Shown here one piece after another: positions 23,601 to 62,600 of a DNA stretch of 64,000 bases. Position 1 is the stretch's first letter. Every line of letters begins with the position of its first letter. Origin of the DNA: Botryllus schlosseri (lineage: Eukaryota); NCBI GenBank assembly GCA_051294905.1, contig CM119371.1, positions 24,802,001 through 24,866,000 of the forward strand, written 5' to 3'. Below the pieces are notes generated by a model that was not told the DNA's origin, ran no database searches, and saw nothing but the letters and a program-made list of their open reading frames with translations. A program made the translations under genes and the position numbers.

Positions 23601-26600
23601 CTTCTGTTGCAAGGCTGGCTATGAGATCATGGAATCCGTTGAAGAAATTCATTTAGATGATGTAATGACAATCCTTAATCGGTCGAAATTATTCTACGTC
23701 CGTCTTCGGTGTAATGATGGTGTGAAACTATTATTTCTCTTTGATTGGATAAAGAGATCTGAGGTATCACATCTACAGTTTTCGAAGTCAGGTAGCCAAG
23801 GGATCTTTGCCATAATTCTGTACTAAATTTGTTCACATGATTTACTAAACGTTAAGAATGTCAGCTGGTAATTGAATATCGCCGTGTCTGCAAAATTCCT
23901 CAGAAAAGCGACTATACAAACACAACACTGAACAATGAACATCATGAAATTTATTGTGATGAAAATAAATACAGCTAAATATAAATGTTGAAATGAAGAT
24001 GGAATCTGTGTAGAATATAGAGCAATATTAATTCTTCATTCAGGTTCACATGGGCGGCCTTGGCTTATTAAGGATAACTCGAGTTGATACTTTGAGAAAT
24101 TTGTTCAGATTTCTGTCGATACACTCAATAGAAAATCTGCGTTTGAACATTAATCCCGGCATAATCGGACTCCAATTTACAGAGATTGTCACGTCTCGTG
24201 GACCGACAACACGCAAGGTGAGAAATGTTATTATTCAATGTTACTGCAAAATTGATCCCCGTTGACTGCTATACTAAATAGTGTAAAAGTAATTTGGTGC
24301 AGCGTTTGGCAACATCGGATGCTGCATATAGCCCATGTCCATGGCGCAGCAATAGCTATAGTGGTTAATGTAAATCTAATGAGCATGCCTATCGCCCGTA
24401 AAACCGTAGAATCTCGTCTCTATTCGCTACTGGAATTTACATAACAATAACTACTTAATCGAATGAGCGTAGAATAATAGTATTGTATGTCCACACGAAC
24501 AAAGAACCCTCACTTGAGAGGTTGAAACCCTATTTTACGTGCACGAGCATGCGGATGAATCTTTAATTTTGTAACCTAATTTCCGCCAGTCCAAGTGTAT
24601 TCGCATCATTCCACTAGCTTCTATATCCGATCAATGTGAAATATTCATCTCCCTGCATGACCCGTATGGTGCATGGAGAATTACACAACAATTATTTGGA
24701 GTTTTTATGAGCGTCTGCGCAGGTGGTTCTCAAATTGGGGTCAGGGCTTCTTTTGGAGTCCGCAAGATAATTTTTTTAAAACCGTGAAGCACGTTAGGAA
24801 ATTTTTTGATGTAACAATCCAACCTTTTTTTAAAACAAACTGAATGGTGGCCCGACGTTATAACGTTATTCGATATAACATATAATATTTTGGTCGCACT
24901 TCGCGCGTTTTAGTGTCACTATGCAGTTCCTGATTAGATTTCGCCTATACCAACTCCTGAACAAATTACGAGTAATTTTGAAGAAATGAGTCTTCCTGTA
25001 TTCTTAATTATGAGAGCATCACTTCAGACCGTTAACACTACATAGTTTAGGGGTGAGCAACCTTCAGGTGCATCATCGTCGTTTCGGTGCTGTCCACAAC
25101 ACACCAAGGTTACACGAACACGCGATTGTACGGGAAGTGCGCTGCCAAAAAGATTACCAGCGACAAAGCCGTTGCCCGAAATAATCACCGTAAGCTGGAA
25201 CCTTGGAATCTTGCATCTTCAGTTGTTCACTCACCGAAAAAATGCGACCCGCGGAGAAGCACAATGCTCCCGGTTCCAAATGCTAAATACAAAGGAATTT
25301 TGCCTTTAGTTTAGTCTGGTACGTGTGAGCGATTCCAATATCTTTCGAGTAGCGACAATAAATAATCGAGTTCACGAAATACCAATATGCTTTTATCCTT
25401 ACTGCACACTAATTTTAATAACACTAGGCTATGGGTCACCAACACGCGGCTCGCGAGGTCATGTTATGCGGATGGCGACTTAATTTGAGGTTTCGGAAGA
25501 AAGCGAAGAAAACCATTTTGAAAGACTGAAATTGAACACAGTTTTAACAAATTGTTGTGGTTATTGTTGTTTCGAAATAGCTATTTTCCTGTGCCAAACA
25601 TCATTCCACCGAGGGAGAATAATCAGCAGATATGAATGGGTTGGGCATGTTGCCTTGACGTGCAATGTCTCAAACACTGCCGAGACCGAGATGTTTAAAA
25701 ACTGCATAGGGCGGTGGTACCAAAACTGGGGGGGTGCACCCCTGTAGTGGGGACGTGAAAGTATCTGAAGGGGCCACGAAGCTGCGGTCAACTGAAAATG
25801 TTTTTGCGCTACGCACCATTTACGTCACATTCATATTTTGTTTGCTATTGTGGTATGCATGGTGTTTTTCGACTACTATAGTCATTTACACCAGGCCAAC
25901 ATTTCTCATTATTTTTCGTAACTGCCGATTATAGCACGGCCCACCTGTAGGCTTTTTGTGAGACACCGCTTACGTGGATGAGGTGGCGAGGATGAGCCAT
26001 AGGTAAACCATAAACACTTAGGTAATGGAATTCTGAAGTCGACCTCGGTCGGACTCGAGCCCGCACCCATTGGTGTTGCAGCCGCAGATTACACCGGAAA
26101 TCATATTATAGAATTCTCTCATCAACAGTCATAACCTGCCATGCCATCAAACCATCCTTTGGAATTGCTAGCATCCTGGTTGTAATTCGGGATATGATGA
26201 TAAGTGGGGAGCGAAATATTTCAGTATCACAAAGGGGGGCGTGTCTAAAAAAGTTTGAGAACCACTTGCTAAGGGCAGTCCCACTATATCAAGCTTTACG
26301 TGGAGATGGTCTTTCAGCTAGTAACGTATCTCGCTACTCCAAATTAGCCTAAATCAAGTGCAAAATCAAATTCAACAAATTTCGTTTCGTAATTTAATAT
26401 AAAAGTGGCTATCCTTTGCATTGTTGTGTAATTTCGAACACTGCGTCCACTCTCATGGGATAACTGCTGCAATCTTCTAAAATAATTTTTCAGGTCTCCA
26501 TCATGACGATTGAAGATAAATCCATGACGTATAAAATATTTGAGGCTTATTTGGATATTTTCCGGCACTGCAAATTCAGGGGTCTATCTCTAGCTAAGTG

Positions 26601-29600
26601 CGATCTCACCGACAAAGATGTTAACATGATTTTACAATGTTGCAGAAATAATGGTATTAAGGTAAGAATTAGGTCATCTATCAGCTTATAGCTCCAAATC
26701 TGGAATTTTCTATATATATGAATGTATCCAAATCGTTTACCTAAAATTATAAGGTGGCGTATGAAACATTTAAAATTAATGTATATTCCGTACAGAGGTG
26801 ATATTCAAATTTTCATAGCACAGGAAGTCATATTTTTTCGTAAATAAAATTACCTTTTCGTATAAGTTTCACCATATCGTTTCGAGAAGATGAATTGGAG
26901 GCGGTGCAATAGATAAATGAACAGTGCTGCAAGTCACGATTATCCTTACAGACCGATATTAAGAACAGACTGACGTACTGGACGACTCTATGACAACAGC
27001 TTCTCTCACTATAACATTCTTTAAAACCAAACTATCTCACAACATAGTCAAGGTATTTCATTAGTTACAAAAACAGGATGCAACCGCTAGATACAGGGAA
27101 TAGCGCGACGCGTATACAACCCGTCAATGCTAAGAATCACGCTGTTGGAAGCAGTAGTCCCACGACTTTATTCCACAAAGGGAAAATTATTATATTTAAT
27201 AAAATTATCACAATGTATAACTCTCAAGTGCAAACCGGGCCTTATTACATTTTGAAAGAAACTTGAACTACTTGAATCTCAAAAATACTTTGACAGAAAT
27301 CATGCAATATTGCTTACTTTCATGTACGCTGATATGATGACCAAGTATGGTATCGGCGAAACCACGAATTCTAATTAATCAATGGTGAACTAAACAGAAT
27401 AGTCGGTGTTTCCAGCTGAATCTTTGGTATTCCACACCATTTATATGCAGTCCGAAACCCCTTGTTGGCAGAGGGTCAGTGGTTTGCGAGTTTTGCTAGA
27501 GCAGAGTTCCAGACATACGGTTCGCGGAGAAACACTGTATATATGGAGATGAGCTTGCATTAGCCAACACATTTCTATGAAAGTTGATATGTTTGATAGA
27601 GAACACCGTCACATAGGTAATATCTCAAAATGGCCGATATCACATTAAAACCGCCCAGTAACAATGCTGCGTTCTCACCCTAGCCACATTTCGTAACAAT
27701 TCTTTGACTTCAAGTAGGAATGTTCACATTGAATTAATTATTTTTGGGAATGGTTCATTCATATTGGTAAAAAGGTCAATGCGTTAAAGTATTTTATGCG
27801 AATAACCTGAGGTGGGCATGGAGTGAGCCGTTCTAGGCATCATGAGATGCTGAATCACAATAACGAATATCGGAGTGGTAGGATAATGCTGTGAATACTG
27901 CTAGAAACAATTTGTGCTGGTTGTGATATATATAATTTCTGATTTAAAGAAACGCCGTGCTCAAAAGCCACTAGGTATTATCTTAACATTAAACATCAAC
28001 TTTAATTGTATGTTATGTAAAATTATCTTCAAAATCTCCCTTTTCGAGAGCGCTGAGTTAGTTCAGTGCCGCAGATGATTAATCTGTTTGATGCGCTGGC
28101 CATGAATAATATCTGCGGAGTCCCAAATGGCCATTTATCAATAGTGAAAGTGAACTAAATCGAAGAGTCCGTATTTAGAGCTGAATTTTTGGTATTCCAC
28201 ACGACGTCTACTCAGTCGCAGAGCTATCGCCGCATCACGTCTAAATCGAACTGAACATAGAAATACCAAAACTTATATCGTCTTGAACCGCCAGTTACAG
28301 TCGGTATTTGATAATATACACCTCACTTGTATATTTACCAGCACGATTGTCTGCAAATGAAGATGCTGTTAAAAGACAAAAGATAGCCATCGTGATTTCT
28401 ACTATTGTTTATTCTATGTGGGCTCGATATTAAAGCATTGTACATCAATGTTCCCTCGAATTTTTCACGAGTCTGCAAGCACTCACCAACCCACTACGCA
28501 GTCCCTTAGACGACTAAAAAAGGTCATCACTTTGAATAGACTGCCGAATTACGCACTTTTCTTGTTCATTGTGTGGTGTTGACTAGAAAAAGGACATCAT
28601 TTCGGTTTTTTATGTGAGAATAGATTATCTGTGGGCAGTAGGCTACTACGCAATTAAGGACGCGTGCAGTTTAGAGGGAACAGTGTAGCCTACAGTGTTT
28701 CATTTTGTCATTGTTTGACCGGTCCGGCCCGTTTCAAATGCATTTTAGTGACTAGCGCGGGGTAGCTGCTATTGTCACAAAGGAAGGCAGTTGATCTGGC
28801 GGCATGTAATGCGAAATTCAGCGAAGTAAGGTTGTCAGCTTCCAACACCAGGTTCTAAAATGTCTGAACACATACTCTTAAAATTAGGAATCAGATTTGT
28901 AATATGACTTGATAATTATCTATTAATCTATTTTATGTTACTTATTTTAGTTACAATAAATATAAATTAACCATTTGTGCCACTATTTCTTTCATTTGAT
29001 CGATTTTGGCATCTTTTTTTCAAATGCCGCATATAGCTGAATATATACGTCAATGAACATAACAATTGAGAATATGAGTGTACAGAAAGCCATTTACATA
29101 TGACATGTGATATACATGAATACCGATTTTTTTATCCCATACGCAGTCAATAAACTGCCGAATAAATAGAAGCACTCTCAAATATTTTTTCTCCGTTGTA
29201 TCGTCCGTTGCTTCGTATCAATCAGTCGATTATTTCTGTTGTGTAGGATATTATTGTCATGAGAAATTGCAGCGAACGATCGCATGGTTTCGAGTAATCG
29301 CATCTGTGATGTCGTAATTTCATTCAGCTTTCCGAAGTTAGGATATGGGATGGAACGATGGCCTCGGATGTCTATTGTGATGTCGCGACTATTGTCCGTG
29401 TCACAGGATGTGCGAAAGTATCTTTCGGAAATTGCGATTTGACGAAACAAAAATTGGGCTGCTTCACGGCAACCTGCAAAGAAAATCAAATATCAGTGAG
29501 TTGGAAGATGTGTTGATATAATTTTTGAAATCAAAAGAGTGTTTCAAAAACATTTTTTCCGAATGGATAGTTTATATACGCCATTGGTTCTCCGACTACG

Positions 29601-32600
29601 GTCCGCGGGACAGTAATTCAGGACGGCGAAGCACGTCCCAACAAATTCACACAACCCAGAAAAATAAATTATTTTTGGATTGAAAAAAATCAGCAATTTA
29701 GTTTCCAAACCAATGGCACAAAATTATATCGGTAATTAACATGAAGTAGATGATTTTGTTGCGCAGTTATTCGATTACATTGTTGGCTTGTATTGTGCCT
29801 ATGCGCATAATCTTACAGAAAAAAGTCTAACTGTATTCGCAGAAATGCGATACTTGAGTTTATTGGTGTGCAACCTGCAGTTACATCATCGGCTATTTGG
29901 TGCGGGTCTATATTCCGCACCAAGACAGCCCAGATCGTTTGAAGGTTTCGCCAGCATACGACTCCACGAAAAGTGACCTGCCAAAAAGAACAGCAGCAAT
30001 GGAGCCCGGGACCAAAGTGATCTCCACAATCAGGCCGAAATCTTCGACAGTAATATCTCCAGACGAAGAGATAGCCGGCACCGCACCGAGTCATTGCAAT
30101 CTAAGCAATGTGCTGTGTTATTGTGAATTCAAAAGTGATTTCATTCGGTCATGCTCTTGTGAGCGATTACAATATTATTCAAGTAGTCACAACCATTAAG
30201 TGAGTCCACGAAATAACAACGTCAATAGACTGAGTACGTTTCTTTATATTATTGACAAAATATATCCCCTGACTGTAAAATTTTTGCGATTCGCGCGAGT
30301 AGAACACAACTATAAAATGATATTTCATAACACTGGTTGGTGCTTAGAAACGAAGAAATTTGGCGTTTTGCGTTATCTATGCTAAACGCTTGGCGTTAGC
30401 TGTAGCTTGATCATGAATCGGATGGAGGGGGTAAGGTACTCCCAGATCATCAAAATTTTTCATAATTTTTTTTTATTGCAGAATTACAAAGTATGAGACT
30501 AGCTCTTTCCAAAAATGTAATCATCTTGCATGATTTCAAGCTATAAGTAGATTAAAAGTCCATTTAAAATCTCTCATTTTCGTAAAAATTCCAGACACCC
30601 CCCCCCCCCCATATTTTTAACCAGCTCAAAATTGTCACTAAAGACCATATCCTCATAATTTAAACAGTTATTGAAAAGAGCCATATCTGTAATCACTCAA
30701 GCATGAATATCATAACATTCTCTGGCAGCCAAAGCAGTTGAAAAGCACTCACAGGACACTGTTTAGCTATCCTGTTGTCGGTGGCTGATTTTTGAATTAA
30801 TTTACTTATCAAGATAATATTGTGAGAAAACTGATAGTTAGTTGTGATTTTACAATGGGCGGGACAAAGATAACAACAAAACAGGCATTTGACCAGAGAA
30901 GGAGAAAATATTATGATAAAGTCATTCGAGAAAAGTTTGGAACTTTTATCTGCTTTGAAGTCTGATGGTGGTGGATGGAATTCAGAGGAAACCTTTTTCC
31001 TAGCAATTCATGCATGATGCAGTTAGTCAATGTATTGTGACTTGTCCTGATTGTGGTTCAACAGGCATGGGCTATTGGCAAAATATCCAGAAAGGCTTTG
31101 CCACAGAGATTAGCATCGGAGTGTCGTGCTGCAATAAAGAAACTTTTCGTCGGTTCACCTCATCAAAAGAGATGTTGAACAGGAAGGCAAAAAGCATTGT
31201 CATCACCAGATCAACACCAAAGTGGAGCCAATATTATCATAATCCCATCGTAAATGGTGCACCAGGTGCACAGGAAGCCTCGAGGAAGTGTGGGCAATAC
31301 CGATGCCCAACAGCTCAACTCCAGAAGAACCGATGCACGGCAATTCTGATGAAAAGAGGTTCTTTTATTTGAAGGCAAAACTTGAAGATGCTACGATCCA
31401 ATCCGCAAGTATCTGCTGACATCAAAAATGTATCAAACGATCAAACCCGACTTCAAGGACCTTGCAAGTATTGAGCGTTTTTCAAAGTGCATGACTTTGC
31501 AAATGCAGAATGCTAAGGGTTATGCAACTCTAATTAGTATTGGAGTGTTATGATGAAATTGATGCTAAAAATTCTATGTTTGAAAGATCACGGGGGAAAT
31601 ATGGGTGTAGTTTCTTCACTCACACCACCTGCAATCGGTATTTTGACAATGTCGCAGTATTCTTGATATGTTGTTTCAGCTTTACAACATCTAACTGATG
31701 TCCAATTCAAGGTTTGTAATTTTTCGAATCTCGTATAGCAGTTTTGAGTAAAAAGTCATCAAATCACTCATACTTTTTATGACTGATTTTGCATTTAGGC
31801 ACATTCAATTGTCTTCAAATTTGGCTATGTACTGATTAAAGCATGCCTGTACCATTTAAAAGCAACAGATTTCAAATACCTGCTCTACTTTTTCAATAAA
31901 ATATTTTTCAATTTTCAAATTTGGTTTTCTCCTATTTCTAGTTTTTGTTACTATTGTGTCACGGGGACAGGGAATTTTGATATCAGAAATCCTTCAATCC
32001 TGATTAAACTTGGCTCAGTACAAGCAGTAGGACTGTTCTACCTGCTGAAACTATTGTTTCTACTATAAAAGTTTTAGTGTACTTACTTTGCTACTTATGA
32101 TCTGAATTTTATGAAAAAAAGTCGAAAATTCGGCACCGTACCAGTACCAAACACATATTTCGTAAATTTTTTCGAAAAATCGGAAGTTTCAAGCGTTTCA
32201 GCAGGTGCTTAGAGCCTCAGGACACTTTATGAAGCATTGTTTAGGATATCTCGGATTCCATCAAAGAAACAGGCGTTTCCCCGTGCTAACCGTCCGCTTC
32301 GCCAATCTCCCCCTCAATTCGGGCCCAAGGAATTATTGTAAAATGCTAAAATATTTACAGTGTATGAAGTTGAGTATAAATAGTTTACATGCCAATTTTT
32401 GAGAATCTAGCATTGGCTGTTCATGAAATATCGCAATTTGAAAACTTTGTGAGTCTAGCAGTACCTTACCCCCTTAAGGGTAGTGATGAAGTTATCGGTA
32501 GAGGTAAGACAGGTCTGAACGATTTGTTACACAGATATCGGGCTTATAACCTTATGATGATCATTGAATGCTTGAATTTGAAGCAGTTTAATGATATTCA

Positions 32601-35600
32601 CTATATTAGGGTCATCTTGGCAATTACGTAACTAAACATAGCCCAGCTGATCGCAGCTCGGCGTCATATAAATCCGTCACATGACCTCCATAAAATATAA
32701 TGTGTTATATTGTTTTGATTTTAAAAGGGACTGAGATTCAGTTAAAATATTGCAAAGGAACCGCTTCTTGAATTTTGTTTGAAGTTTGAGAACGACTGGT
32801 ATTACAATCACATCGCTAGGTATATTGATAATTCATATTTTCCGACCTATCGAAAAAGCAAAGAATTAAATTGAGCGTAACTTACACTGTATTTGTCAAA
32901 AAATCGTATGTTGTATATATTTCTTGCTTCGTAGCTCTCTCGTCTGCAAATATTGGATCACGAAATGCCAGTTGAAGTTTATCGCGAAATCGCAGTTACT
33001 CTCAAGGCGACGAATAGCAAAGAGATGATGTTCCAAAGCTGCGACTTGACAAGATCAAAGCTTTCTGAATTCCACACCGGATGTCAAGAGAACGCTCTAT
33101 CTGTAAGTTCATTTAATCTATAGAAAACAGGCATTGTAATGACCATATTTCTTACGAGGGCGATCGCTATCCACCACTAGATCATGAGGAGTTTTTGGTA
33201 GACTGTGAGATTCTGCAATCATTACTTGCGGCATTATTACAATCATACGACGAGTAAAACAGACGCTATTGACAGTAAATGTTGGTTATTATTGGCCCTA
33301 TATTTTCAAGTCTTCGTGCCAAGGAGTCATCAACGTATGTCAGTCCACTGTGACACACTATTGAAAATATTTATTAAGGTAATAGCACGCAATTCAAGGG
33401 ATTCGTCGTATGCACCATATTTCTGTGTTGGAAAGTGATAGGATGTTTACACCATTCACCGTCATAATTTCAAGTAGTCGGATTTCCTGCGGTTTCGCAG
33501 TGCTGTACATACTCGGACCACTGTTTCTGCACGACAGTCTAAATCAGTGGTTCCCAACCTTTTTCGACTCATCGCCCCTTTTTGAAGCTCCACACCGATC
33601 ATCGCCCCCCAAATATTGGGAACCGAAAATGGTCAACTTTTCGGTTCGACCACGAAATTTCACTTTTACAGCTAAATTTTCGTTGGGTCGCCTATGGACA
33701 ATTAAACATATATGTATATATATCGAAGTTTTCAGTCAGCACAAGGGCATTCCTTTTCGGCCAAGGTCTTCTCGCTGCTGATCGTTCTGGCATATTTCTT
33801 GGAGTCGTATGTTACATGGCCTATAACTTCATATGTCTTGGAGCGTCGTGGCGCAGTAATGGATGTCGCCGAAGTCTCCATTTCCATAAATTATGCGTAT
33901 TGTTGTTGGGGGTAGGGTACCCCAAAATCATTATATACGACAATATTTAATCGCGCGTAGCGCTAAAATTTTTTGAAAAAGTTGGAAGAATTTCTAGAAA
34001 AATTACTCTATAATTTATGTTAATTCACGAAATAATTTCGGGCCTCTTCGAGTTCGTCCCTCAAATTGCGGGTTTGGGGTGCGGCAGTTACGGTCCTGAC
34101 TCCATCAATGTAGCCGTTTTAACGCGCCATCGCCCCCCTATCGCCCCCTCCGTTGTTTTCGCCCCCTATCGCCCCATTCGTCCGTTTTCGCCCCCCTATC
34201 GCCCCCTTCGATATTTTCACCCCCATACACCGCAAAATCGCCCCCTGGGGGGCGATATCGCCCAAGTTGGGAACCACTGGTCTAAATCCTATGTCGCCGA
34301 TTATACACACAGAAGCCTGTCCAATGTGTCCACTGTCCATGTTGTCTACGGATGCTAACCGTTGTAATTCATACACATATTACACGGGTTTGATCAAACG
34401 TCCAAGTCCAAATCAAATGACTATAGCTGACGCGTAGAACAGCAACAGCAACATACAACCTAATGAAGATAGTTGAAACGTAATACAGCAACAGAAACGT
34501 ACAACCAAATGATAATAGCTATCACGTAAATCAGCAACATACAGCCGAATTATCGTAATAACGTAGGACGAAAGTAAGGAACGTAAACTAACAAGGAAGG
34601 AACGTAGGATGATTATAATTATTTTTGCGACAACGTAAATAACAAGCAATCGGTGCTTCGTCGAGGCTATATATAGTAGTTGCTTTTTTGTTTGTTGTAT
34701 TCATTTTTTATTTTTTATTTTTAGTCTTCTAGTGACACTCAATCTCGCGAAGCGCTCCAAAAATATTTCAGGTTAAATGAGTTTGCCCAAATATAGTATA
34801 TTTATTGTTCACTAAAATGCAAAATATTAAGAGGCATGGCCCCTTTTTCCCTCCTGGCTGATAATTATAGCACACGAGATTAGTCGTCGCCTTTTGTTTT
34901 GGCAACATTGCACGAAGTTTAGCAAATTTTTCTCTCTCGTGTAGCTGTTCACCAAAGTTCAAGCGATCTCTTTGACTTGAATCGATGACGTTTGAATGTT
35001 TTGTTACTATCTAAAAAATGTTAACTTAAAAATAGGTTATAAATACTTTCACCATACAGGCTTCGTTGTGATAGATTCGGCACGACGTTTGCCCGATAAG
35101 GAGAAATTTGGTTGAGAGGCCGTCACGGGCTCAACATAATTGTTTCGCGAACTGAAGTTTTAGCACAATTGAATTAACTTAAAAAATAAGGCGGAATTTG
35201 TATGTAAAGGAAATATTTCAAATAGCGTTTCAACATACTTACAGCACAAAAAAAAGCCAAAAGGTGCAAACATTCGGAATAGACTAATTGACTACTTGAT
35301 TGTTCGGACATCAATAATTTCTAAAGCACCCCCCCCCCCCCAAAAAAAAAAAATACGAATTTCCCCACAAGTGCGGAATTTCCCCGCGCTTCCACTGGCT
35401 TAAGCTTTCAGGTGTCTCATTAACATGGCAACTCTCTTCCCTCGTTTTGATTTAAACTATAGTGCACTAAAACCCACCTCGACCAAATAACTTGTTGTGT
35501 TTCGTACAAGAACGTGTACTATGGCTTTGATGGTCAAGTCTAAGAACTGTTCAGCTGTTCCAAAATACAGTACATGGTATGGTATGGTATGAAAGTATGG

Positions 35601-38600
35601 TATGGTAGTTTCATTGCCTATTTTTGCTGCATTTGTACCGCGGGATCAAGGTTCTAACGGCGGCGATCTTTCTGGGATCGCACTCAGTGGTGGCTAAAAC
35701 ATATCTGCATTGGTGTGCCGTTTTGGCGCTGATAAGCTGCTGCCCAAAAGTCCCGTAACCGCCGGCAGTACACACGAATGTAGTTAGATTCAATTCTGTA
35801 CATCATGCGTATGATTATTTTGGCCAGTTTTTCATTTTTATTTATCAAGAGGCGGGCACACAATTAGACAACTACTGAAACTGTATTACGCGCGAAGCAC
35901 AACGAAAAAATTAAAGTTAATGAATATCTTCAAAAATACTAAACCTTATATTAATAAACAAACAATTCGAAAAATTGGGGGACAGCATGCCACCTTTAGC
36001 CCACACCTGACAACGAATGCAAATCGCTGTACTTCCTACAGGTATTTCACGAGTGTAATGAAACGTCAAAGTCCGATTTAAACAGGAATAGCTGACTCGT
36101 AGAACACCAACAGCAGCATACAACTGCCTCCAGATAGCAGTTACGTAGAACATGCAGCAACATCAACATACAGCCGAATGAAGATAGCTGACACGTATAC
36201 GAATGAACTTAATACCGCAGTAGCAAGGAAGAACTTAACATTTACAATACATCTTGCGACAACGCAAATAACAAACTGTCGCTGCTTCACCGACACTTTA
36301 CGTAGCAGTTTGAACAACCATCCTAAAAGACTTGATTATCAATAATTGCTAAAATACGGAGGCTAATGAAGTTTACCAAACAACATTCGTAGTCACAAAC
36401 TTCCACTTTCCATTAAATATGCTACTGTTTGAAATTCCAGGATTCATACTTGGACAAAAGAATTCAATCGAAAAATCGATAAAAATTTGTGATCTTTGAG
36501 GTTACATTTACAACAGAAGGTAATTTAAAACAAGCATGTTCAAAATGGTGACGTCAAGGTTCTGTGATTGTGACGTCACAGAGGATTGACATTGACAATT
36601 TAAAATATAGGTTAACTACGGTTCCTTCGACGAAAACGGCTTCCAATCACTGTCATAAAAAGACCAAAAATATCTTTAACCAGGAGTATATCATTAAGCA
36701 GCATTCTTACGGTCAGCGGTTTTCATCATCAGAACACCCATTCCGCGCCAATGATGTATATCTACCTATGTTATAACTGTCGAACTGACTACGATTTCGA
36801 GGGTTTTAACCACACTGTATCGTTATGTCGACCATATTGGCTGAAATTCGTCCGCAGTCTAATACTACATGTTTTTTTCGAAATGATTTAAACGATTGTG
36901 GCATAATTAGACAACGTTTGAAAATAAAATTCCGTAAAAAGTATTTGTTTAAAAGTCAATGCTTTAAAACACCCTTTGTTTTAAATATAACACTAGTGAT
37001 ATTACTTTTCATTGGAACCTCGATATTGCTCACTTCCACAAACTAGGTCACCGATATTGAAACGGTTGATTTTAAATCACTGCGACATCTTTCAGCAACA
37101 CGACGAATAGTTTACTACGATAGTGGTTATCAGTTCTGGTGAAGTAAGAAATATATATGAATTCACTGAGTCGCCTCATATTTAAAACACCCGGATACTT
37201 GAAAGTTACTGACTCATCTCATCAATAGGTGTGAGGCTAATTTCCGAATAGTTTACACTTTATGTTCGCTTTTATTGCTGGTGTAGTACAAAATCGCTCG
37301 AATACAGTGACACGGTCACCAAGTTGCATTCACGTGACAATGAAATGCGACCGAATGCAAGTAATATAGGTTCAGTTTATCTTGAAAATTAATACAGAAT
37401 ATTTCAATAGATTTCAATTTGTGATATTCTTGCCGCTTGATTATTGCCAACTTCTATTTATCTGAGAGGGGAGATTTTAATTTTTAGTGGGGTAGAAATA
37501 CTCAAGGGATGATATATTGGCCTCTGGAACGCTATGAAATGGCCAGAAAGATGGGATAGCAGGATACCTTAATAATTCCCATTACAAAATAACTATTTAC
37601 CAGAATAGTCAAATGCCAACATTATTCGTCGCGCGATAAACACGGACGATAAGCATAATTTCACGAATGCATGCGTCATCACAATATCATGCATCATGTA
37701 ACATATAATCTTCTTACGCAGATGTGACACCGCAATCGGTTATCCAAAGCAATCGGATAGTTACAGCATTCTTATTTTGTAGCTCTCGAGGTTGCACATA
37801 ATCGATGTCAAAATGCCAGCCGAATGTTTTCGCGAAATGGCAATTATAGTCAAGTCCATCAGTTGCAAAAAGATAACATTCGAACATTGTGAATTGACGA
37901 GACGGAAGCTTTCTGAATTCTACACTGGATGCAAAGACAGCGACTTATGTGTGAGTTCATTTTATGTACCGGAAACGCGCATATGTTCAGATCGGGGGAG
38001 CTTACACTCTTAGAAATATTCGTAGATTTACCCAAATTATACCGGTAAATTTGTCCCGTCAGTTATATTAACGGTAAATGCCCGTTAAATTAATATACGG
38101 GCACGTCAAAAGTAAATTTACTTGTTTTTAGAGGGTGAAAAAATTACAGATTAAATTCGTAGAAGCAATTTACGGGATAACCAGTATTTCAGATTTACTT
38201 TTGGATTTGTAAAAGCAATTTACTGGATAATAAGTATTCCGGATTTACTTTTGCATTCGTAAAAGCGATTTACTGGATAATCATTATTTGCAACATTGCT
38301 ATTGAACTCACAATTCGATCATTTTACACGCTTACGGTCTTATGTACATATAAATATGTGATTTGCGTAATTACATCATGTTTCAATCATCAACCAAATT
38401 ATGACACCGATGGCCTTGCTGATTGCTAATCGGTGAATGGTATCCGAACATTTGGGCATTGCAGATACCATCGTTTATATCGCTTCATAAATAGTATCCT
38501 TTGAGACATCAAGGTCTAGCAATAGTAGCATGCCAAGCGAATTTGGTATGTTATGCAGTTTTACTGCAGGTATGATCTTTTGTGTAATTATCTGTTGGAC

Positions 38601-47600: not shown

Positions 47601-50600
47601 AACAATTTCCGTATGACAGACCCCAGTCTCGCGAACGAGGTTGAATCAGGTCAAATCAGGTCAATCATATTACCACTATTGACAATTGAGTTGGTGAATA
47701 TATCTCTGACTCTTGATCAATGTTCCCTCTTATTTTTGACGAGTCTGCGCACACTCGACAATTTATTGCGCAAACCCTTGGACAACAGTGCGTAACGACT
47801 AAAAAAAGGTCATCACTTCGGATTTTTTGTGCGCAACTTGGATTTTCTGTGCGCAGAGACCGCGTCAGCACTGCGCATTTGCGCACGTGCGCAGCTTAGA
47901 GGGAACATTGCTCTTGATCTGTTTTAACGACTGTACGCAATGCCCACACGTGAGAAATGGTAACAAAATGTCATTGATTTGTGCAGCGAATAAATCCCAT
48001 CCATGAGCATGAGCATTGCACTAAAATTTATGTATATGTATATTAGGGTTCTTCAAAATTTGGAAAATCTTAAAAAGTATCCGTGATTGTGTCTCATTCT
48101 ATAGATTATTGATAAAAAAAAAACTATTAGCCTGAAAGAAGCTAACAGAAATGCCGTTAAGATTTCGGTCAAAGCGTTTGAAAGTAGCTGCTCAAGAATG
48201 GGCGTGCCACCGACCATAGAACGGCGAGAAGACTAGTAATCAAATAACAACGGCTCTTGTTCTGCTAATCGGCTATGCTTCAATGATCACGGCGGCAGCA
48301 GCTTGCTGATTAGGTGTTCAAGAAGACTGCTACGGGCGGGGATTCTGAGTGCGCATTGTTAGTATTTTGGCAGGTGATGATTTAAGATTAATTCAGGACA
48401 TGTTGAGTTACGAAATACATGATGAACAAACAACACCTGCTTCTCAGAAGCTTTTACAGCACGACTGCTTTATTGTGAAGGAAACGGCTGAAGCCTACAT
48501 GCCGTGTTTTCATCGAGATAAAGCAAAGGCGCTTATGCAAGTGTTGAGCGAATTCACCGTTTCAGTACGGATCCATTATCAGTGAATACAAATATATAAC
48601 GCGTAACAATGACACTATACTTTGTGTGATCTTATTTGGCTGAAGCTGTAGTATATAGGTGACGTTTTGAATGCTCTAGGAATCGGCGGAATCAGCCGGT
48701 TATGTTTGGCACTAATCAGACGCCTACAGCAAATTGAATGCACTTGTAGGCGTTGTTAAAGTCATTAATGATAACGCAGAAAATAGGTGGTAATGTACGC
48801 ACACTCGCACAGGCCATGCTGGATATGGTATGTCAAAGTCCTTATTAATCCCGCTGAAAAGAGGTGTGAAGAAAAGCACAGACTATGCTGCATATAGTAT
48901 CCAGCAAAGTTTGGATATGATATAAAGCATAGCCTGTGCTTACCTTGCACCTCTTTTCTGCAGCATCATTAAGGACTTTGACAACTCTTATAAGTGAATT
49001 CAATTTGCTGTAAGTATAACTGCCAAGCACAACCGGCCGATTCAGACGATCCCCCAAAGTATAGTGTCATAGTCAAGCTTTATTTGTATTCACTGATGAT
49101 GGATCCGTTCTTAAACGGGGAATTCGTTCACCACTTGCATAAGCGCCTTTGCTTTTCCTCGATGAAAACACGGCATGTAGGCTACAGCCGCTTCCTTCAC
49201 AATAAAGCAGTCGTGCTGTAAAAGCTTCTGAGAAGCAGGTGTTGTTTGTTCATCATATATTTCGTAACTCAACATGTCCTGAATTAATCTTAAATCATCA
49301 CCTGCCTAAATACTGACAATGCGCACTCAGAATCCCCACCGGTAGCAGACTTCTTGAACACCTAATCAGCAAGCTGCTGCTGCCGTGATCATTGAAGCAT
49401 AGCCAATATGCCAATCAAGAGCCGTGGGTATTTGATTACTAGTCTTCTCGCCGTTCTATGGTCGGTGGCACGCCCATTCTTGAGCAGCTACTTTCAAACG
49501 CTTTGACCGAAATCTTAACGGCTTTCCTGTAAGCTTCTCTCAGGCTAATTGTTATTTTTCATCAATAATCTACAGAATGAGACACAATCACGGAGACTTT
49601 TTAAGATTTTCTAAATTTTGGACAACCCCTTATATATATGTATGTTTATGTATATCTAGTTTCATCATCCAAACTCTATCACAGGCCTTTATCAAAATGT
49701 AAACGCGTGAAAAAAGCATCATCCCCCTCATACATGCCTGGAACACAATGTTTGGTCATAAGGCAGTGTCGAAATTTGCCACCGTTAATACTGTAAATTA
49801 AAAGATGGTCGAAATTTCAATTAAAGATCGCATGGCCTTTACTGGTGGGAATTGACTGAAATTTGGAGTCTAGCGTTTTTCAGACAACCTGACAATTTTA
49901 TCCCTAAGCAAGTGAAATTTGGAAAAAAAGTGATTTTTGAACAACCCCACTGTATATATTTGGCATACGTGATACGTCTTCCGGCTGGAGCTCATGAAAA
50001 TGCATGGTGTCTTCGAACATTTAGGAAACCCATGCCATCGCACAGTTGAGACTATTCATGTTCCGGGTGGGTCGACATTATTTTGCTGAAGAATGTTGTT
50101 ATTTCGTGAACTCCGGTGAAGATTGTGTCAGGCTATACTCAAAAGGTTCAAAATTCGTATTTCATGACTGGGTGATGTGTTTTCCTCTTCGTCCCGCATT
50201 CGTACCGCTGGGCTCGGCCTTCAAGGGCAAGACTATTCGTTACCGTCATTTTAGAGCCTATCTTATCGACAGTTTGGACATGAAAAATTTGGTAAATCAG
50301 TTACAATTCTACAGCAGAATTCCTCCCTAAAAATTACAAATTTCTCCCTGACCCGAGTCACTTTACAAAAATGTTGGTTGGGTCGTGTCCAGAGGAGTCA
50401 ATTTCAAGTCATCAAGCAGACGGTGTTGACTTAGTGTCTGTTGTACGCACGTCGTACATATTCTCGAAACGCCGCTACGACCTGTTAGAGCAGGGGTGGG
50501 CAAACTACGGCCCGCAACACCGTTCTGTGCGGCCCGCGAGAGAGTCTAAAGAAACTTTTTGAAAATATTGATTAAATGCGTACTAAAAATCGAATTATTG

Positions 50601-53600: not shown

Positions 53601-56600
53601 ATTCAGATCATTGCTTTTTTTAACGTTTTCTGAGCACAATCCGCACTTTTGTGCAAAAATAATTTCATCCCAATAAAATTGTTATAGAAACAGAAACTGA
53701 AGATACGTATCTATATTATAGTCAGGTGTGTTACAAATATATGTTCCAGTTTGGGCCATCAAGTTTCACATTAAATGAATAACTCTTTTCCCTCATTTTG
53801 ATCTCAACGATAATGCACTAAAATTCTTTTCGGTAAAACAAGTGTATGGCTTAGTACAAGGATTTCAAGTGCTTCGATAGTCATGTCCGTATAAGAACCA
53901 TCCAACACTCATATCCAAAATTTTCCCAAGTGAAAAATACTCGCTGTTTCGAAGTTTTCATGAACGCATGCAGTTCATAGAAGGGGTGCCGAACCCACAT
54001 GTTTGTTTTATTGCTTCAGCCTGAAGACTTGAAAAATAAGCTCCAAAGCATTGATGAAAGTTGGTACATAAGAGCTCGATGCCTTATAATACACGTATCT
54101 TTTTTTTAAATCAAATTTTCAATTCCCTGTCCCACGAGTATTGCAAGGGCAAAGAAATTCACAATACCGTTGTGTTCGGCTCTTCATCTAAATATTTCAA
54201 GAATATCCATAGCAGTGCAATAACCTTCAATAACGGGTTGAATTGAATGGTATTCAACCGTCACTAAAGTTCACCACGGAAAAATAGATCGTCAATTCAT
54301 TAGCATTCCATGATGTTTTGGTTAAAAAGACGGGTGCTAATTTTGTTACATCAGTTTACCGTAAGCCTACATTCAGTTGGCAATACATCGCGCCATTCGC
54401 GTCTGACCGCCGAGGTGTGCGGACGTGTCTAGATTGAGCAGCTCGTCCTGCAATCAGCGTCGAGAGCTTGTTGCGAGGTTTCGGGTTTCTGGTGTGAAGA
54501 CTTACTTATAGTAGTACTCTAGCGGTATTCGGATAGGATTACTTGCAGTGACAAGTTATTAGCTGTATAAGCCACCATTCCGCCTGATAGCAGCGGATGT
54601 TGGTAACGATGACACGGAATTTACTGTTGTCACATCAAAACGCAGTAAAAAGGGTTCACAAAGCAAGTCGGATGGTGATAGTCCGCCATTGAAATCAATG
54701 AATAATAAGTCTGAGGCAGTCTATTCTGGCCGCTCAGCCAATTCAGCTCGCGCCGAAAATTTGAAAATAGTTGTAAAGGGTAAAGAGAGGAAGATGAAAC
54801 ACTATCATCCTACCACAGTGAACAAGTGCTTGCACGCAGTGATTGGTAATTATGACGGGATCCGTGTCTTCCCGTCTGGAGACTTACTCGTCACCTGCCA
54901 CAATCGCACGCAGGCCGATAAGCTCCTACCTCTAGACATGTTCACGGACGGAGTAGTGTCAATTCCAGTTAATACCGGATGTTACGATGAGAGTAAACTG
55001 CATCAGCATGCGTCTAGGGCCATTGTCCGAGGTGTGCCAGCTGATATGTCAGAATACGAAGTTGTTGAATTCCTCAGCGAATCACACGTGTGCTTTGCTA
55101 AACGGCTAAAACGCAAGTCAACTGATGGCTATGTTGCTAGTTTGTCAATGCTGCTCGGGTTCAATGTTCCAACACCTCGAGATGAGTTGTAAATTGGATA
55201 TCTTCGATTCAAGACCAATCCCTATAATCCTACCCCATTGAGGTGCCACCGATGCAATCGATTCGGTCACACGAAGGCAAATTGCGGTGTAAGAAAAACG
55301 TGCTCCAAATGTGGGAGTCATGAGCATGAGCATCATCAGTGCGATCAGGAAAAGAGATGTGTCAATTGCAAAATGCCCCATAGCGCAGCTTACGGTGGGT
55401 GCCCAGTGTATAAGAGGGAAGCCAAAATACAAATAATTCGAGAACGAGAGAGTCTATCGTATGTCGATGCTAAAGCGAAAGTATCGCGTGTCGATGCTAA
55501 AGCGAAAGCACCAGAAACATCTTAACCCTTTCAATGGGGGGCCAGATTTTGCAGAAGTGACCATCACTTTGCAAATTCATACCGTGACCTCACCAAGACC
55601 TTAATCTGAGCTGTTCCAGTTTAAAAGTGGCCGGAGTATAGCCGTCTGCCGTTTCAACCCTTGATCGACACCTCATGCCATGTCTAGGGTTCTTTATACG
55701 ACTAAATATACAAACTTTTTCTCTGAAAAATATCTTTCTCTCTCTCATTTTTCCGTGACTGACCCCCAGGATAGCGTCAGAGTCAGAAATGATGCCTCAG
55801 TGCGTAGCCACCGTTGCCTGGTTTCAAACAAGCCGCGCGGCTCGCCAGATATCGAAAATCAATAATACATGAAAAATTTACATATGGGCGTGGTCAGTGA
55901 GTGGTCATAATAGTCAAGTTCAAGATCAATACCGAACCGGACCCCTACCACTCAGTTAATGGCATGAAACAACGTGGTATACTTTCTCCTGTCATAACTC
56001 ACTATTTGCAGACATAGTTAACCAGTTTATGACTCGTTTACGTATTGAACTTGGCCATGTTCTTGAAAATCATCGAAGCGAGACCACAATTAAACAAACC
56101 CCCTGTTCCAGGGCTCTTAGTACCAGGGCACTTGGTCGGATCAGATAGCTAGGAGCAGCCAAAATAAACCTCCCACACTTGGGAAGGAATTCTTGAGTCG
56201 ACCTCGATCGGACTGAAACCCGGAACTTATTGGTGTTGCAGCTGTGGATCACACCATTCAGCTAGCTCGTCACTTATTTGATCGAATAATTCGAACTATC
56301 TGGTATCTGGTGAAAGACCATGTTGATATGTCGAACTTTTTGATTTGGGCACAATGCACAAGTTACTATAAATCGGCCTCTCTCGACATGCGGTGCTAAA
56401 AGAACACAGATTAGAGTAGGAGACTGAGTCAACTGTAACGGAAGAAATGTCGACTCAAAATCCTATCACTCCGGAATTCGATTTCTCCCTCCACCATCGA
56501 AAACTGAAGTCATTTGTACAGTAAATCCCTAATATCAGAAACATTTAAAACATTTCATATTCGAAAGAGATTAACGACTCAATTAAATACCGGAATTTTA

Positions 56601-59600: not shown

Positions 59601-62600
59601 TTTACAGATACAAAAGAATCACCATCAAACTGAAGGTTATAGATTCCGATTTTGATGTACTTCGCAAAGAAGAGGGGCCTAACTATCCTGAGTCGTATGT
59701 CAATCGTTAGAGATTTGGGCTGAATATCATTACAAAGTTATCTGTCTGAGTCAAATTCCCCAAAAAGTAAATGACTGCAAGAATTCTCTGCTGGTAGGAC
59801 CGAGAAATCAAGAAACCAGTCATGGAAATGTGCATAATATGACTGATTTGGAATTGAATCATGTTGGGGGAAGGTAGCCTACATCAACATGGACCACATT
59901 CATCTCGATTTCTACAATATCATCAACATGCAACTGAAGGTCATCCATTCTGATATGGATTTACTGCTCAAAGAGGCGACAAACTGCTCTGGGCCGAACG
60001 TCAATTGCTAGAGATTTGGGCTGAATATCATTACAAAGTTTGCTGTCTGTGTCAAATTCCCCAAAAAGTCAATGACTACAAGAATACTCGAGTGGTAGGA
60101 CCGTGAAATCAAGAAACCAGTCATGGAAATTTGCAAATATGACCGATTTGGAATTGTACCATGTTGGGGGAATGTAGCCTACATCAACATGGACCACATT
60201 CATCTCAATTTCTACAATAGCATCAACAATTCAACATGCAACTGAAGGTTGTCCGTTCTGATATTGATGTACTGTGCCTGTGTAATGATGGGACTAACTA
60301 CCTTGGTCCGAAAGTCAATTTCTTCAGATTTTGACTGACCGTCATTCCGAAGTTTGATGCTTGAGTCAACTCGCCAAAAATATGAATATACCACCAATCA
60401 AAATATAGTGAATGATTAGATCGACTCTGAAAAATGCTTCGGTTGGCACTATGACAAGGGATGTACCATGACAAATAATCTTTTATCTCTAGCAAGGTGC
60501 TGACAATAATGCTTGAAGAATTCGGTATGTATAGCATGGTATTTTATCATGTCTAGCAGAAAATGTTAGGTGTGCACACTGTGCAGTACTCATGATTGAA
60601 AGAAAAGGTTTTTACTTGGATGAGTTTGTCTTTGTAGACTATTTTCATTTCATGTGTTTGGCTATCATCATAATTTATTGTGTGATGATGAAGACCAGAC
60701 CCTGGAGATTCCTATTTACTCAACAAAAATGCAAATTGAAGGATTTCAGTTCTTTTCACAAACTGTTCAAGTATACAACATGATCATGAACAATGAAATA
60801 AGTCTGCCGATTTGTGTTACTTTATCAGTTGAGAATGTTGAATATATGCTGTGCAGATATGGTAGTTGGATTGGATTGTCGGGCTATTGAGAGAACACAG
60901 TAATGGTGGAATCTCGGCAAGTTTTGCGCAATTGATTAGGGGAGCACTGATGATTTCCAAGGTGACAGTAAGGTACTCCCAAGGAATTAAGGGAGCACAG
61001 GACACTCATTCCGTGCGGGTTAGATTCGAATGTGGATAAAACAACAAAGGTGACATTCCGTACTGTGAACACACAGAACAAGTTGTGCGCGGTGAAGACA
61101 GCGGGTGAAAAGCGCCATTGGCCCCTCGATTTTTACAGACAGTGTGGTGTCAAATATATATTCATAAGCCAGGATATTGTAAATTTTCGCCCTGTCCTTC
61201 AATTTACCTCCTGGCAGGGCATCGCCAGTAAAGTCATGACTAAATTTTGGAACTCTGAAAGCATGATGGCAAATCTAGCCATGGTATTTGATTCGAAAAT
61301 GGTTACAGAAATATAGCCGGAGTTTTTTTAATGCGCTCAGCTGCTCATCATTGAAATAGATATCGCGCTAGCGACCGCTGAGTTCCACAAAAAAATTGTT
61401 TTGTTTACTATTCTGTCGGCCTTGAGTAGCTTTTCAGTACAAATTGAGCATCTATTTACTGAACGCTAGCTCGTCTCAATGATCATCAGTTCGTCTGAAC
61501 GGCGTTTAAATATTGATGGTGCATCGCGAGAAATTTTGAACTGATGTTCCGTTTGAGTTATGTTCGAGCGAACAGACGATCAGACTTGAACTTGTTCAAT
61601 GTTGGTGCATACGGCCCCATGATTGGCAATCTAGAGTTCAAAATGAGGTTTTGTGAACTACACGCAATATAATTTTCGGTACATACATTCCAGAGCAGTT
61701 AACTGGTAACGGTATAATTGTGCATGTGTCTCCTTGAATATGTAGACTGTCCCGTATACAATTTTGAACAAATGCGTCCATTCCCACCAAAAACCATTGA
61801 ATTTGGGAACCACTGCTCTACACCAATACTCCCTCTAAGCTGCACTCGAGAAGTGCTGATACGGTCTATGTGCAGTGAAAATCTAAGCTGCGCACAAAAA
61901 AATCCGAATTCATGACCTTTTTGTTAGTCGTTTCGCAGTGTTGTCAAAAGGGACCATGCAGTGAGTTGGTGATTACGCGTAGACTCGTTAAAAATTAGAT
62001 GGAGTATTGCTCTACACGTCATAATATAGTGTATTTTGTCATCGCAATGTGTCCGTAACGTGTTTATATTAGCCAATACGCAGTCTATGAACTGGTGAAC
62101 ACATGTATGTGTCTCTAAATTTTTATCTTCATTTTATCATTCAAAGTTTCGAATCAACCAAGTCGACTATATCATTCGAATGCGAAATGAATGTGAGGAA
62201 TCGCAGCGAGAAATCGTGATGTGCTTACGAGTATTAACAAGTGAGAGGTTGCATTTTCATTCAGCTTTCTCATCTGTCGATATGGGATGGAACAATGACG
62301 TCAGATGTCTATTGCGATATCGCGGCTATTATCAGTATCACGGGATGTTCGGCAGTATCTTTCGTGGACTGCAATTTGACAAAGAAGAAGATGAGATGTT
62401 TCGCGGTAACCAGCAAAAGAAATCAATTATCTGTAAGTTGTAAAGTGTGCTAAGACATTTGCGGTTTTATAGATAGTTGTTATTCCGAAGACAGGACAAG
62501 AAAAGAGGCCAAGTATAAATCATACGAAGTCATCACGTTGATTTTAAATTCCCTTTGGACAATTGCAATATACCATGACGTCGCTATACCTATATTGATA

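Follow-up and report, generated by a model that had tools for sequence, protein, structure and literature searches.

A NACHT gene of Botryllus schlosseri with thirteen equal two-repeat exons, probably encoding a leucine-rich repeat solenoid diversified between paralogs

We analyzed a window of 64,000 nucleotides of Botryllus schlosseri DNA (contig CM119371.1, positions 24,802,001 to 24,866,000) that contains part of a NACHT-LRR gene in which all 13 repeat exons are equal in length, frame-preserving and made of two repeats each. The array probably encodes a long, mostly serially spliced leucine-rich repeat (LRR) solenoid that is diversified between genes, a kind known from vertebrate NLRPs. In this explanation, the most likely one, the 13 exons would be spliced mainly in series into a solenoid of the ribonuclease inhibitor (RI) type with about 26 repeats (728 amino acids), bounded by a fixed first repeat and by a fixed last repeat plus cap. 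Since every repeat exon is in phase 0-0 and forms one structural unit, blocks of exon plus intron could be duplicated, lost or exchanged between paralogs in frame. Such exchange would yield genes differing in solenoid length and strand-face residues, with unequal crossing-over as the presumed mechanism of exon-number change. The diversity would be germline, lying between genes and probably also between alleles, and the product may bind ligands on its concave face and have an immune role. The firm parts of this picture are the exon anatomy, the gene boundaries, the differing exon counts, the block relationships and the selection pattern.

Anatomy of the gene

The NACHT exon scored 47.1 bits against PF05729 (curated cut-off 26.7), as expected of the NACHT NTPase of an animal NLR, and is followed by repeat exons of the same gene (Table 1), in agreement with the NLR-type (NACHT-LRR) gene described in the first-pass annotation. 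The helical-domain exon was absent from that account. In P0018, an intronless Logan ORF, homologues of the linker exons, of the first repeat (L0) and of class A run through in that order. Because the NACHT exon starts in phase 1, an upstream exon is expected; Pfam revealed no N-terminal effector exon in 44 of the 96 upstream ORFs, nor did a tblastn search that used the Styela N-terminus as query, and neither FISNA nor B30.2 was detected in the Pfam scan of the NACHT exon. The NACHT exon is closely preceded by an LTR retrotransposon.

Table 1. Features of the focal gene (window positions unless marked C1)
Feature	Position	Strand	Evidence or remark
NACHT and winged-helix exon, phase 1 in/0 out	16053..17191	+	Pfam NACHT E=3e-12; splice sites from sequence
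Helical-domain exon, phase 0-1	20255..20417	+	P0018 residues 1-55, 45%, E=1e-11
Helical/linker exon, phase 1-0	23232..23551	+	P0018 residues 54-164, 38%
150-nt linker exon, phase 0-0, inferred donor	23614..23763	+	P0018 residues 163-214, 42%
174-nt transition exon, phase 0-0	24044..24217	+	P0018 residues 213-270, weak (E=1.3); less certain
First repeat exon, class L0	26494..26661	+	One per gene; after NACHT exon in 8/8 C1-cluster genes
Repeat exon A1, two beta-alpha units	29328..29495	+	AlphaFold pLDDT 93; 82% to first A exon of paralog N6
Repeat exon B1	32935..33102	+	82% to first B exon of paralog N6
Repeat exon B2	37783..37950	+	82% to second B exon of paralog N6
Repeat exon A2	62265..62432	+	Best paralog match only 68%
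Repeat exons past the window	C1:24886135, 24891529, 24894042, 24894353, 24902368, 24953960, 24954273, 24956300		
Cap exon	C1: about 24962915-24963085		After thirteenth repeat exon
Probable last exon	C1: about 24969617		After cap exon

We recovered all five 168-nt exons of the first-pass annotation at their positions, each preceded by AG, followed by GTRAG and in phase 0, with frame 0 as the sole open one of the three plus-strand frames. These five had been described as the array; in fact they open a series of 13 repeat exons, eight further 168-nt exons lying past the window end. The introns between them, given earlier as 2.7-24 kb and transposon-filled, measure 2666, 3439, 4680 and 24314 nt and contain dispersed and palindromic repeats. 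As a control for chance, stop-free AG-168nt-GT stretches were counted in the whole window (20 on the plus strand and 9 on the minus strand); when a YAG acceptor and a GTRAG donor were required, exactly the five repeat exons were left on the plus strand and none on the minus strand. The donor is GTRAG in 13/13 repeat exons of the focal gene, and the acceptors include one GAG and two AAG. In a wider survey of 58 repeat exons, AG and GT stood at the 168-nt register in 56, and 57 were stop-free. Between the first and the last repeat exon the classes run A B B A B B A B B A B; identity is 61% (amino acids) and 75% (nucleotides) between A1 and A2, and 50% and 70% between B1 and B2. A broken exon remnant is also tolerated.

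The focal gene is at least 150 kb long, extends about 100 kb past the window and includes introns of 21-51 kb. An assembly gap of 100 N at C1:24915559 separates repeat exons 10 and 11, so that only scaffolding links the final three repeats and the cap to the rest. That A2 belongs to a different gene is ruled out, since the stretch separating it from the earlier exons contains no second NACHT, first-repeat or cap exon; alternative 3' ends were ruled out by the single cap per NACHT exon in all eight paralogs.

Predicted fold and relatives

When the five window repeat exons were scanned singly, Pfam recognized an LRR family in none of them, and the LRR call thus relies on structure prediction. 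The AlphaFold model of a repeat exon is strand-helix-strand-helix, i.e., two beta-alpha units. Two repeats per exon, as first annotated, was therefore correct, but the strand spacing in the predicted structures divides them into 27+29 residues and not 28+28. In fold searches the single-exon model reached at best E=0.19 with Foldseek and Z=5.0 with VIA, neither of them significant. P0005, an 8-repeat Styela homologue (profile E=1e-82), is modelled as a solenoid that matches the fold of RI/NLRP chains with E down to 3e-10. Taken together, the exon model and the fold of the Styela clava homologue point, indirectly, to a C-terminal RI-type LRR solenoid encoded by the focal gene. A sequence search of the PDB gave weak matches only, including pentapeptide-repeat proteins at E=0.006 and ribonuclease inhibitor at E=0.03; the pentapeptide fold was ruled out by the helices in both models (single exon and P0005).

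A profile search of 1.84 billion protein representatives recovered 75 proteins, none of them more than 50% identical per repeat to the focal exons, so that no spliced product of Botryllus schlosseri was among them. The best matches were the uncharacterised Styela clava NACHT proteins XP_039248824.1, XP_077976001.1 and XP_077976009.1, which likewise consist of NACHT, linker and then repeats with a period of 54-58 amino acids, but share just 16-39% identity per repeat with the focal exons. XP_077976001.1 has an N-terminal Death domain, whereas no effector exon was found in the focal gene. In the Styela clava RefSeq models, a single chain holds 11, 23 or 32 such repeats. Word-index protein searches for longer relatives returned nothing, and a near-length protein search gave two single-exon-like proteins. 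In the literature covered, from which subscription journals are mostly absent, we found no description of this ascidian family.

Among known systems, the closest resemblance is to vertebrate NLRPs and ribonuclease inhibitor, in which NACHT is followed by equal, frame-preserving exons of two RI-type repeats (Hoss et al., 2019, PMC6642158). Those exons measure 171 nt (28+29 amino acids), whereas the focal ones measure 168 nt (27+29); the focal family also differs from NLRPs as described there by the lack of a Pfam LRR match, by the 4-23 repeat exons of neighbouring paralogs and by introns of up to 51 kb. The focal array is thus NLRP-like in its working, yet it is not an NLRP. Zebrafish NLR-C genes resemble it in forming lineage-specific NACHT gene clusters and in having a single large NACHT exon, with LRR exons scattered over tens of kilobases, and they show copy-number variation; that study counted gene copies (NACHT plus B30.2 exon) and not LRR exons (PMC11192531). 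Brown algal ROCO genes have symmetric LRR exons, duplication and shuffling, and variable concave-face residues; they differ in their ROC-COR GTPase in place of NACHT and in having one 72-nt phase-2 exon per repeat, and alternative splicing of the LRR exons as well as positive selection are reported for them (PMC11378527).

Variation between paralogs

In the single haplotype analyzed, the focal gene is one of eight tandem paralogs in the C1 cluster. NACHT, L0 and cap exons occur once per gene in 8/8 paralogs, and one last-repeat (C) exon was found in seven of them. The comparison of exon number between paralogs proposed in the first pass revealed a strong difference: we found 8, 4, 12, 6, 14, 23, 11 and 13 repeat exons per gene, all of these counts being lower bounds except that of the focal gene (13). 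The first four repeat exons of the focal gene correspond to the first four of N6, in the same order, at 82-84%. A later A-B block, together with its introns, is 90% identical to N7 over 955 nt, and the A exon of this N7-like block is 79-82% identical to N1, N3 and N5 and at best 59% to N6. In a tree of 58 exons, from which about half of the paralogs' exons are absent and which is biased to A-class matches and their neighbours, a single clade was rejected both for the four A exons of the focal gene (p-AU 0.002) and for its seven B exons (p-AU <1e-100), with exon groups named after the tree was seen. In N6, five A copies have loci 99.3-99.9% identical over 2.3-3.2 kb. Judged from sequence, the focal array is a patchwork of blocks common to different paralogs; combined with the differing exon counts, this supports germline gain, loss and exchange of repeat exons.

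Repeat exons are under purifying selection, exposed strand positions excepted. On 20 disjoint sister pairs, pN/pS was 0.40 at 50 positions versus 1.13 at the 6 exposed ones on the strands, numbers 3, 5, 7, 30, 32 and 34 (p=6e-5 by Fisher's test); the selection sets excluded L0, a stop-containing exon, two C exons and four N6 copies that are identical. The exposed strand positions are the most variable between repeat exons, consistent with the recognition-surface diversity put forward in the first pass; their pN/pS does not exceed 1 significantly (p=0.44) and could thus reflect relaxed constraint.

Splicing, competing explanations and significance

Four bulk RNA runs (6-13% of each run read; source individuals and tissues not known) were compared at 92% likeness with positions 19000-38999. 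Reads fell almost entirely on intronic repeats, the linker exons and A1 had zero depth in 4/4 runs, and none of the 15 read joints listed for this stretch, which does not include A2, connected one exon to another (three more joints were left off the list), so that these runs are uninformative on splicing. No RNA dataset was listed as containing the NACHT exon. This lack of a focal-gene transcript weighs against the serially spliced solenoid, as does the fact that the Styela clava models are predictions of low identity to the repeat exons. The long introns, the GAG and AAG acceptors and the tolerated exon remnant would all permit skipping.

Frequent and functional skipping of internal repeat exons, regulated or stochastic, would give many LRR surfaces per gene. 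All 11 internal exons are in phase 0-0 and structurally equivalent, the introns are long and some acceptors weaker, and there are precedents on a smaller scale in brown algal ROCO (PMC11378527) and in human NLRP3, in which one LRR exon is skipped in about 33% of transcripts (PMC6642158). Nevertheless, tandem exon duplication alone already demands symmetric phase, the donors are near consensus, and the four annotated isoforms of one Styela clava gene (X1-X4) differ by only one residue or a truncation, with no internal repeat skipped. We therefore regard such skipping as rather unlikely, although it may occur occasionally, by analogy with human NLRP3. Silence or decay of the focal gene or of its distal exons, with the array arising as a side effect of repeat-driven duplication, is improbable. 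The near absence of exon reads, the missing upstream effector exon, the adjacent LTR retrotransposon and the stops in the NACHT and L0 exons of paralog N5 would fit this; against it, the NACHT exon and 13/13 repeat exons are open with AG/GT sites, selection across sister pairs is purifying, and the RNA coverage was small and of unspecified origin.

Dscam-type arrays cluster same-class alternatives between constant exons, with intronic docking/selector complementarity and one alternative per transcript. Mutually exclusive splicing of A1/A2 and B1/B2, suggested in the first pass, would place one A and one B exon in each transcript; the two recurring classes and a partial similarity of flanking introns (about 200 nt upstream of A1 and A2, 71%) point that way. 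However, A and B exons intermingle over the full length of the 13-exon array instead of forming separate clusters, no docking or selector element is common to the 26 flanks of 300 nt (longest inter-exon reverse-complement match 12 nt), flank similarity tracks the duplication history of the exons, and the models of relatives have 11-32 repeats in series. It is hardly credible here. A very improbable candidate combines two layers of LRR diversification in tunicate cytosolic receptors, germline block exchange and cell-by-cell exon skipping between the fixed first repeat and the cap; if true, an invertebrate chordate would have an analogue of lamprey VLR diversity that works by splicing and may serve pathogen or non-self recognition, and the focal gene alone could yield as many as 2^11 in-frame forms.

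Extensive skipping, if true, would constitute a new route of somatic diversification; as the evidence stands, the design is one already known from vertebrate NLRs. Since the repeats have no Pfam LRR match and every Styela relative bears the name "uncharacterized", counts of ascidian NLRs are probably too low. Its neighbouring genes having 4 to 23 interchangeable repeat exons and a variable strand face, this cluster is a clean system for the renewal of receptor surfaces in an animal without adaptive immunity.

Organization of the gene

The five 168-nt exons reported by the first-pass annotation were all present, each preceded by AG, followed by GTRAG and open in frame 0 only. When every stop-free 168-nt stretch of the whole window was filtered for a YAG acceptor and a GTRAG donor, exactly five were retained on the plus strand and none on the minus strand. 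The introns between the five repeat exons (2.7, 3.4, 4.7, and 24.3 kb) contain dispersed and palindromic repeats. In the 24-kb intron lie two large fold-back-like palindromes, each about 1.6 kb long and 80-83% self-complementary, both nested among further inverted repeats.

Features of the window (CM119371.1:24802001-24866000; window positions; start only for repeat exons)
Feature	Position	Strand	Remark
Dispersed element	6940-8010		about 1.07 kb; holds a 111-aa ORF
Gypsy-type LTR retrotransposon	9506-15734	-	257-nt terminal repeats, 98% identical
NACHT exon	16053-17191		
Linker exon	20255-20417		absent from first-pass annotation
Linker exon	23232-23551		absent from first-pass annotation
Linker exon	23614-23763		absent from first-pass annotation
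Linker exon	24044-24217		absent from first-pass annotation
L0, first repeat exon	26494	+	168 nt
A1	29328	+	168 nt
B1	32935	+	168 nt
B2	37783	+	168 nt
Fold-back-like palindrome	43355-44945		
Fold-back-like palindrome	48033-49642		
209-aa ORF	54563-55192	+	no Pfam match
A2	62265	+	168 nt

The phases of the four linker exons between NACHT and L0 fit one another and lead into phase 0 of the repeat exons. A public ORF without introns (P0018, from Logan) spans, in order, the linker exons (three matched well, the fourth weakly), L0 and an A-type repeat, from which we infer that it derives from the transcript of a relative. An N-terminal exon was sought upstream of NACHT and not found. Downstream, an HMM scan over a 264-kb region that includes the window located eight further 168-nt exons, giving the order L0 A B B A / B B A B B A B C (the slash marking the window end; A and B, two alternating classes; C, the last repeat), then a cap exon; the exon after the cap is probably the gene's last. 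The series from L0 to C is uninterrupted by any other NACHT, L0 or cap exon, so A2 belongs to the same gene as the other four exons and not to a different one. An assembly gap of 100 N (C1, that is CM119371.1, 24915559-24915658) lies between repeats 10 and 11, within the gene's 51-kb intron.

Stops lie between the gag, RT/RNase H and integrase-like frames of the Gypsy-type element, and about 320 nt separate this element from the NACHT exon downstream. The dispersed element has at least 40 copies across the genome (86-96% identity), and the 209-aa ORF presumably resembles ORF1 of a non-LTR retrotransposon.

Nature of the repeats and selection

Pfam reported no LRR in the five exons, nor in their Styela relatives. 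AlphaFold, run on a 53-exon alignment, modeled the repeat exon as strand-helix-strand-helix (pLDDT 93) with strands 27 residues apart; a fold search with this single unit, which is too small, gave no significant match. A profile search of 1.84 billion representatives returned "uncharacterized" Styela clava proteins as best matches, and the predicted fold of one with eight repeats is a solenoid with 29/27 alternation, matching NLRP and ribonuclease-inhibitor chains (E down to 3e-10). Given the exon model and these solenoid matches, the repeats are predicted to be divergent RI-type LRRs of 27+29 residues. Taken alone, the best profile matches make an ascidian source probable. Another profile match (P0011, 1687 aa) combines a Ribonuc_2-5A domain and LRR-like repeats in one protein.

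The repeat scaffold is conserved: dN/dS pooled over all pairs, which are non-independent, was 0.34 for 26 A exons and 0.42 for 24 B exons. At six exposed strand positions, fixed in advance on the basis of the LRR consensus and the model, it was about 1.4-1.5. Among 20 disjoint sister pairs, pN/pS was 0.40 over the remaining positions and 1.13 at these six (Fisher p=6e-5), a value not significantly above 1 (p=0.44). The strand face is probably the binding face, and this putative binding face is either free or diversifying.

Splicing of the repeat exons

The proposal that A1 and A2, or B1 and B2, are chosen in a mutually exclusive manner was not borne out. The A and B classes are interleaved, no shared complementary element of the docking type was found within 300 nt of the exons, and in predicted Styela models a single chain carries 11, 23, or 32 repeats; together, these indirect lines make mutual exclusion unlikely. 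The four predicted isoforms of one Styela gene differ by one residue or by truncation only. Internal repeat exons may be skipped: all are symmetric, introns of up to 51 kb occur, and one acceptor reads GAG. Reads from four bulk RNA runs, sampled at 6-13% per run, were mapped on 19000-38999: depth was zero over 23002-25002 and the A1 bin in all four and below 1 in the bins with L0, B1, and B2, and none of the 15 joints listed was an exon-exon joint. This sparseness may come from low expression, tissue or allele divergence.

Modular evolution of the array

The gene is the last of eight tandem NACHT paralogs (N1-N8) on C1 (23.45-24.82 Mb; 71-89% identity to its NACHT), and about 20 more relatives lie on other contigs (38-57%). 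One L0 and one cap follow each of the eight C1 NACHT exons, and one C exon was found in seven of the eight paralogs. Cassette number, which the first-pass annotation had suggested might vary between alleles, differs among paralogs: from N1 to N7 there are at least 8, 4, 12, 6, 14, 23, and 11 repeat exons, all lower bounds, and 13 in the gene under study, which is not one. Of 58 exons examined, a set biased to intact best matches, 57 lack a stop and 56 are bounded by AG and GT in the 168-nt register. N5 (C1:24164829-24252517) carries a TAA in its NACHT exon and a TGA in L0, yet no stop is present in the 13 following repeat exons or in the cap; this paralog may be a recent pseudogene or serve as a donor pool for exons. 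Further arrays of repeat exons with caps occur at C7:28.46-28.66 Mb, C11:4.40-4.98 Mb, and C3:25.36 Mb. The NACHT search gave no close match near them among the matches listed; any NACHT there may have diverged further or have escaped scoring.

The gene's NACHT is 89% identical to that of N6 and 79% to that of N7, and its first four repeats match the first four of N6 in the same order (82-84%). A later A-B block, introns included, aligns with N7 at 90% identity across 955 nt, and the A exon of this block reaches 79-82% with exons in N1, N3, and N5 and at most 59% with N6. For this middle part of the array, loss of a block in N6 could be the explanation instead of recombination in the gene under study. 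The gene's cap is 60% identical to that of N6, whereas the N6 and N7 caps share 84%, a contrast that spans the gene's assembly gap. The gene's A exons were rejected as one clade, as were its B exons, these groups having been named after the tree was inspected.

N6 also contains five tandem A-B units (C1:24431735-24458769, L024-L028) with protein-identical A exons and loci and flanks 99.3-99.9% identical, reflecting either a very recent expansion or an assembly artefact. Near-identical stretches of this sort are also present on C7 (28.56-28.59 Mb). At C1:24904410 (L034), a truncated B-exon remnant retains the 3' third without the donor and, with its downstream intron, is 86% identical to the N7 exon at 24775377. 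Taken together, the paralog match patterns, clade tests, N6 copies and B remnant show that exon blocks have been gained and lost, and suggest that they have also been exchanged between paralogs.

Two-LRR, frame-preserving exons of 171 nt are described for NLRP genes by Hoss et al. (PMC6642158), with exon 5 of NLRP3 skipped in 33% of transcripts. In brown algal ROCO genes, one-repeat exons are reported to be shuffled and alternatively spliced, and the concave face to be under selection (PMC11378527); for zebrafish NLR-C genes, expanded clusters of variable copy number are reported (PMC11192531). No account of this ascidian family was among the papers listed by our literature search. The present gene resembles NLRP in its modular-array design, but has its own exon length (168 nt), and the number of exons varies unusually widely among its neighbors. 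The array is a real feature, of an NLRP-type modular design already known in kind, and its germline modular evolution is supported.
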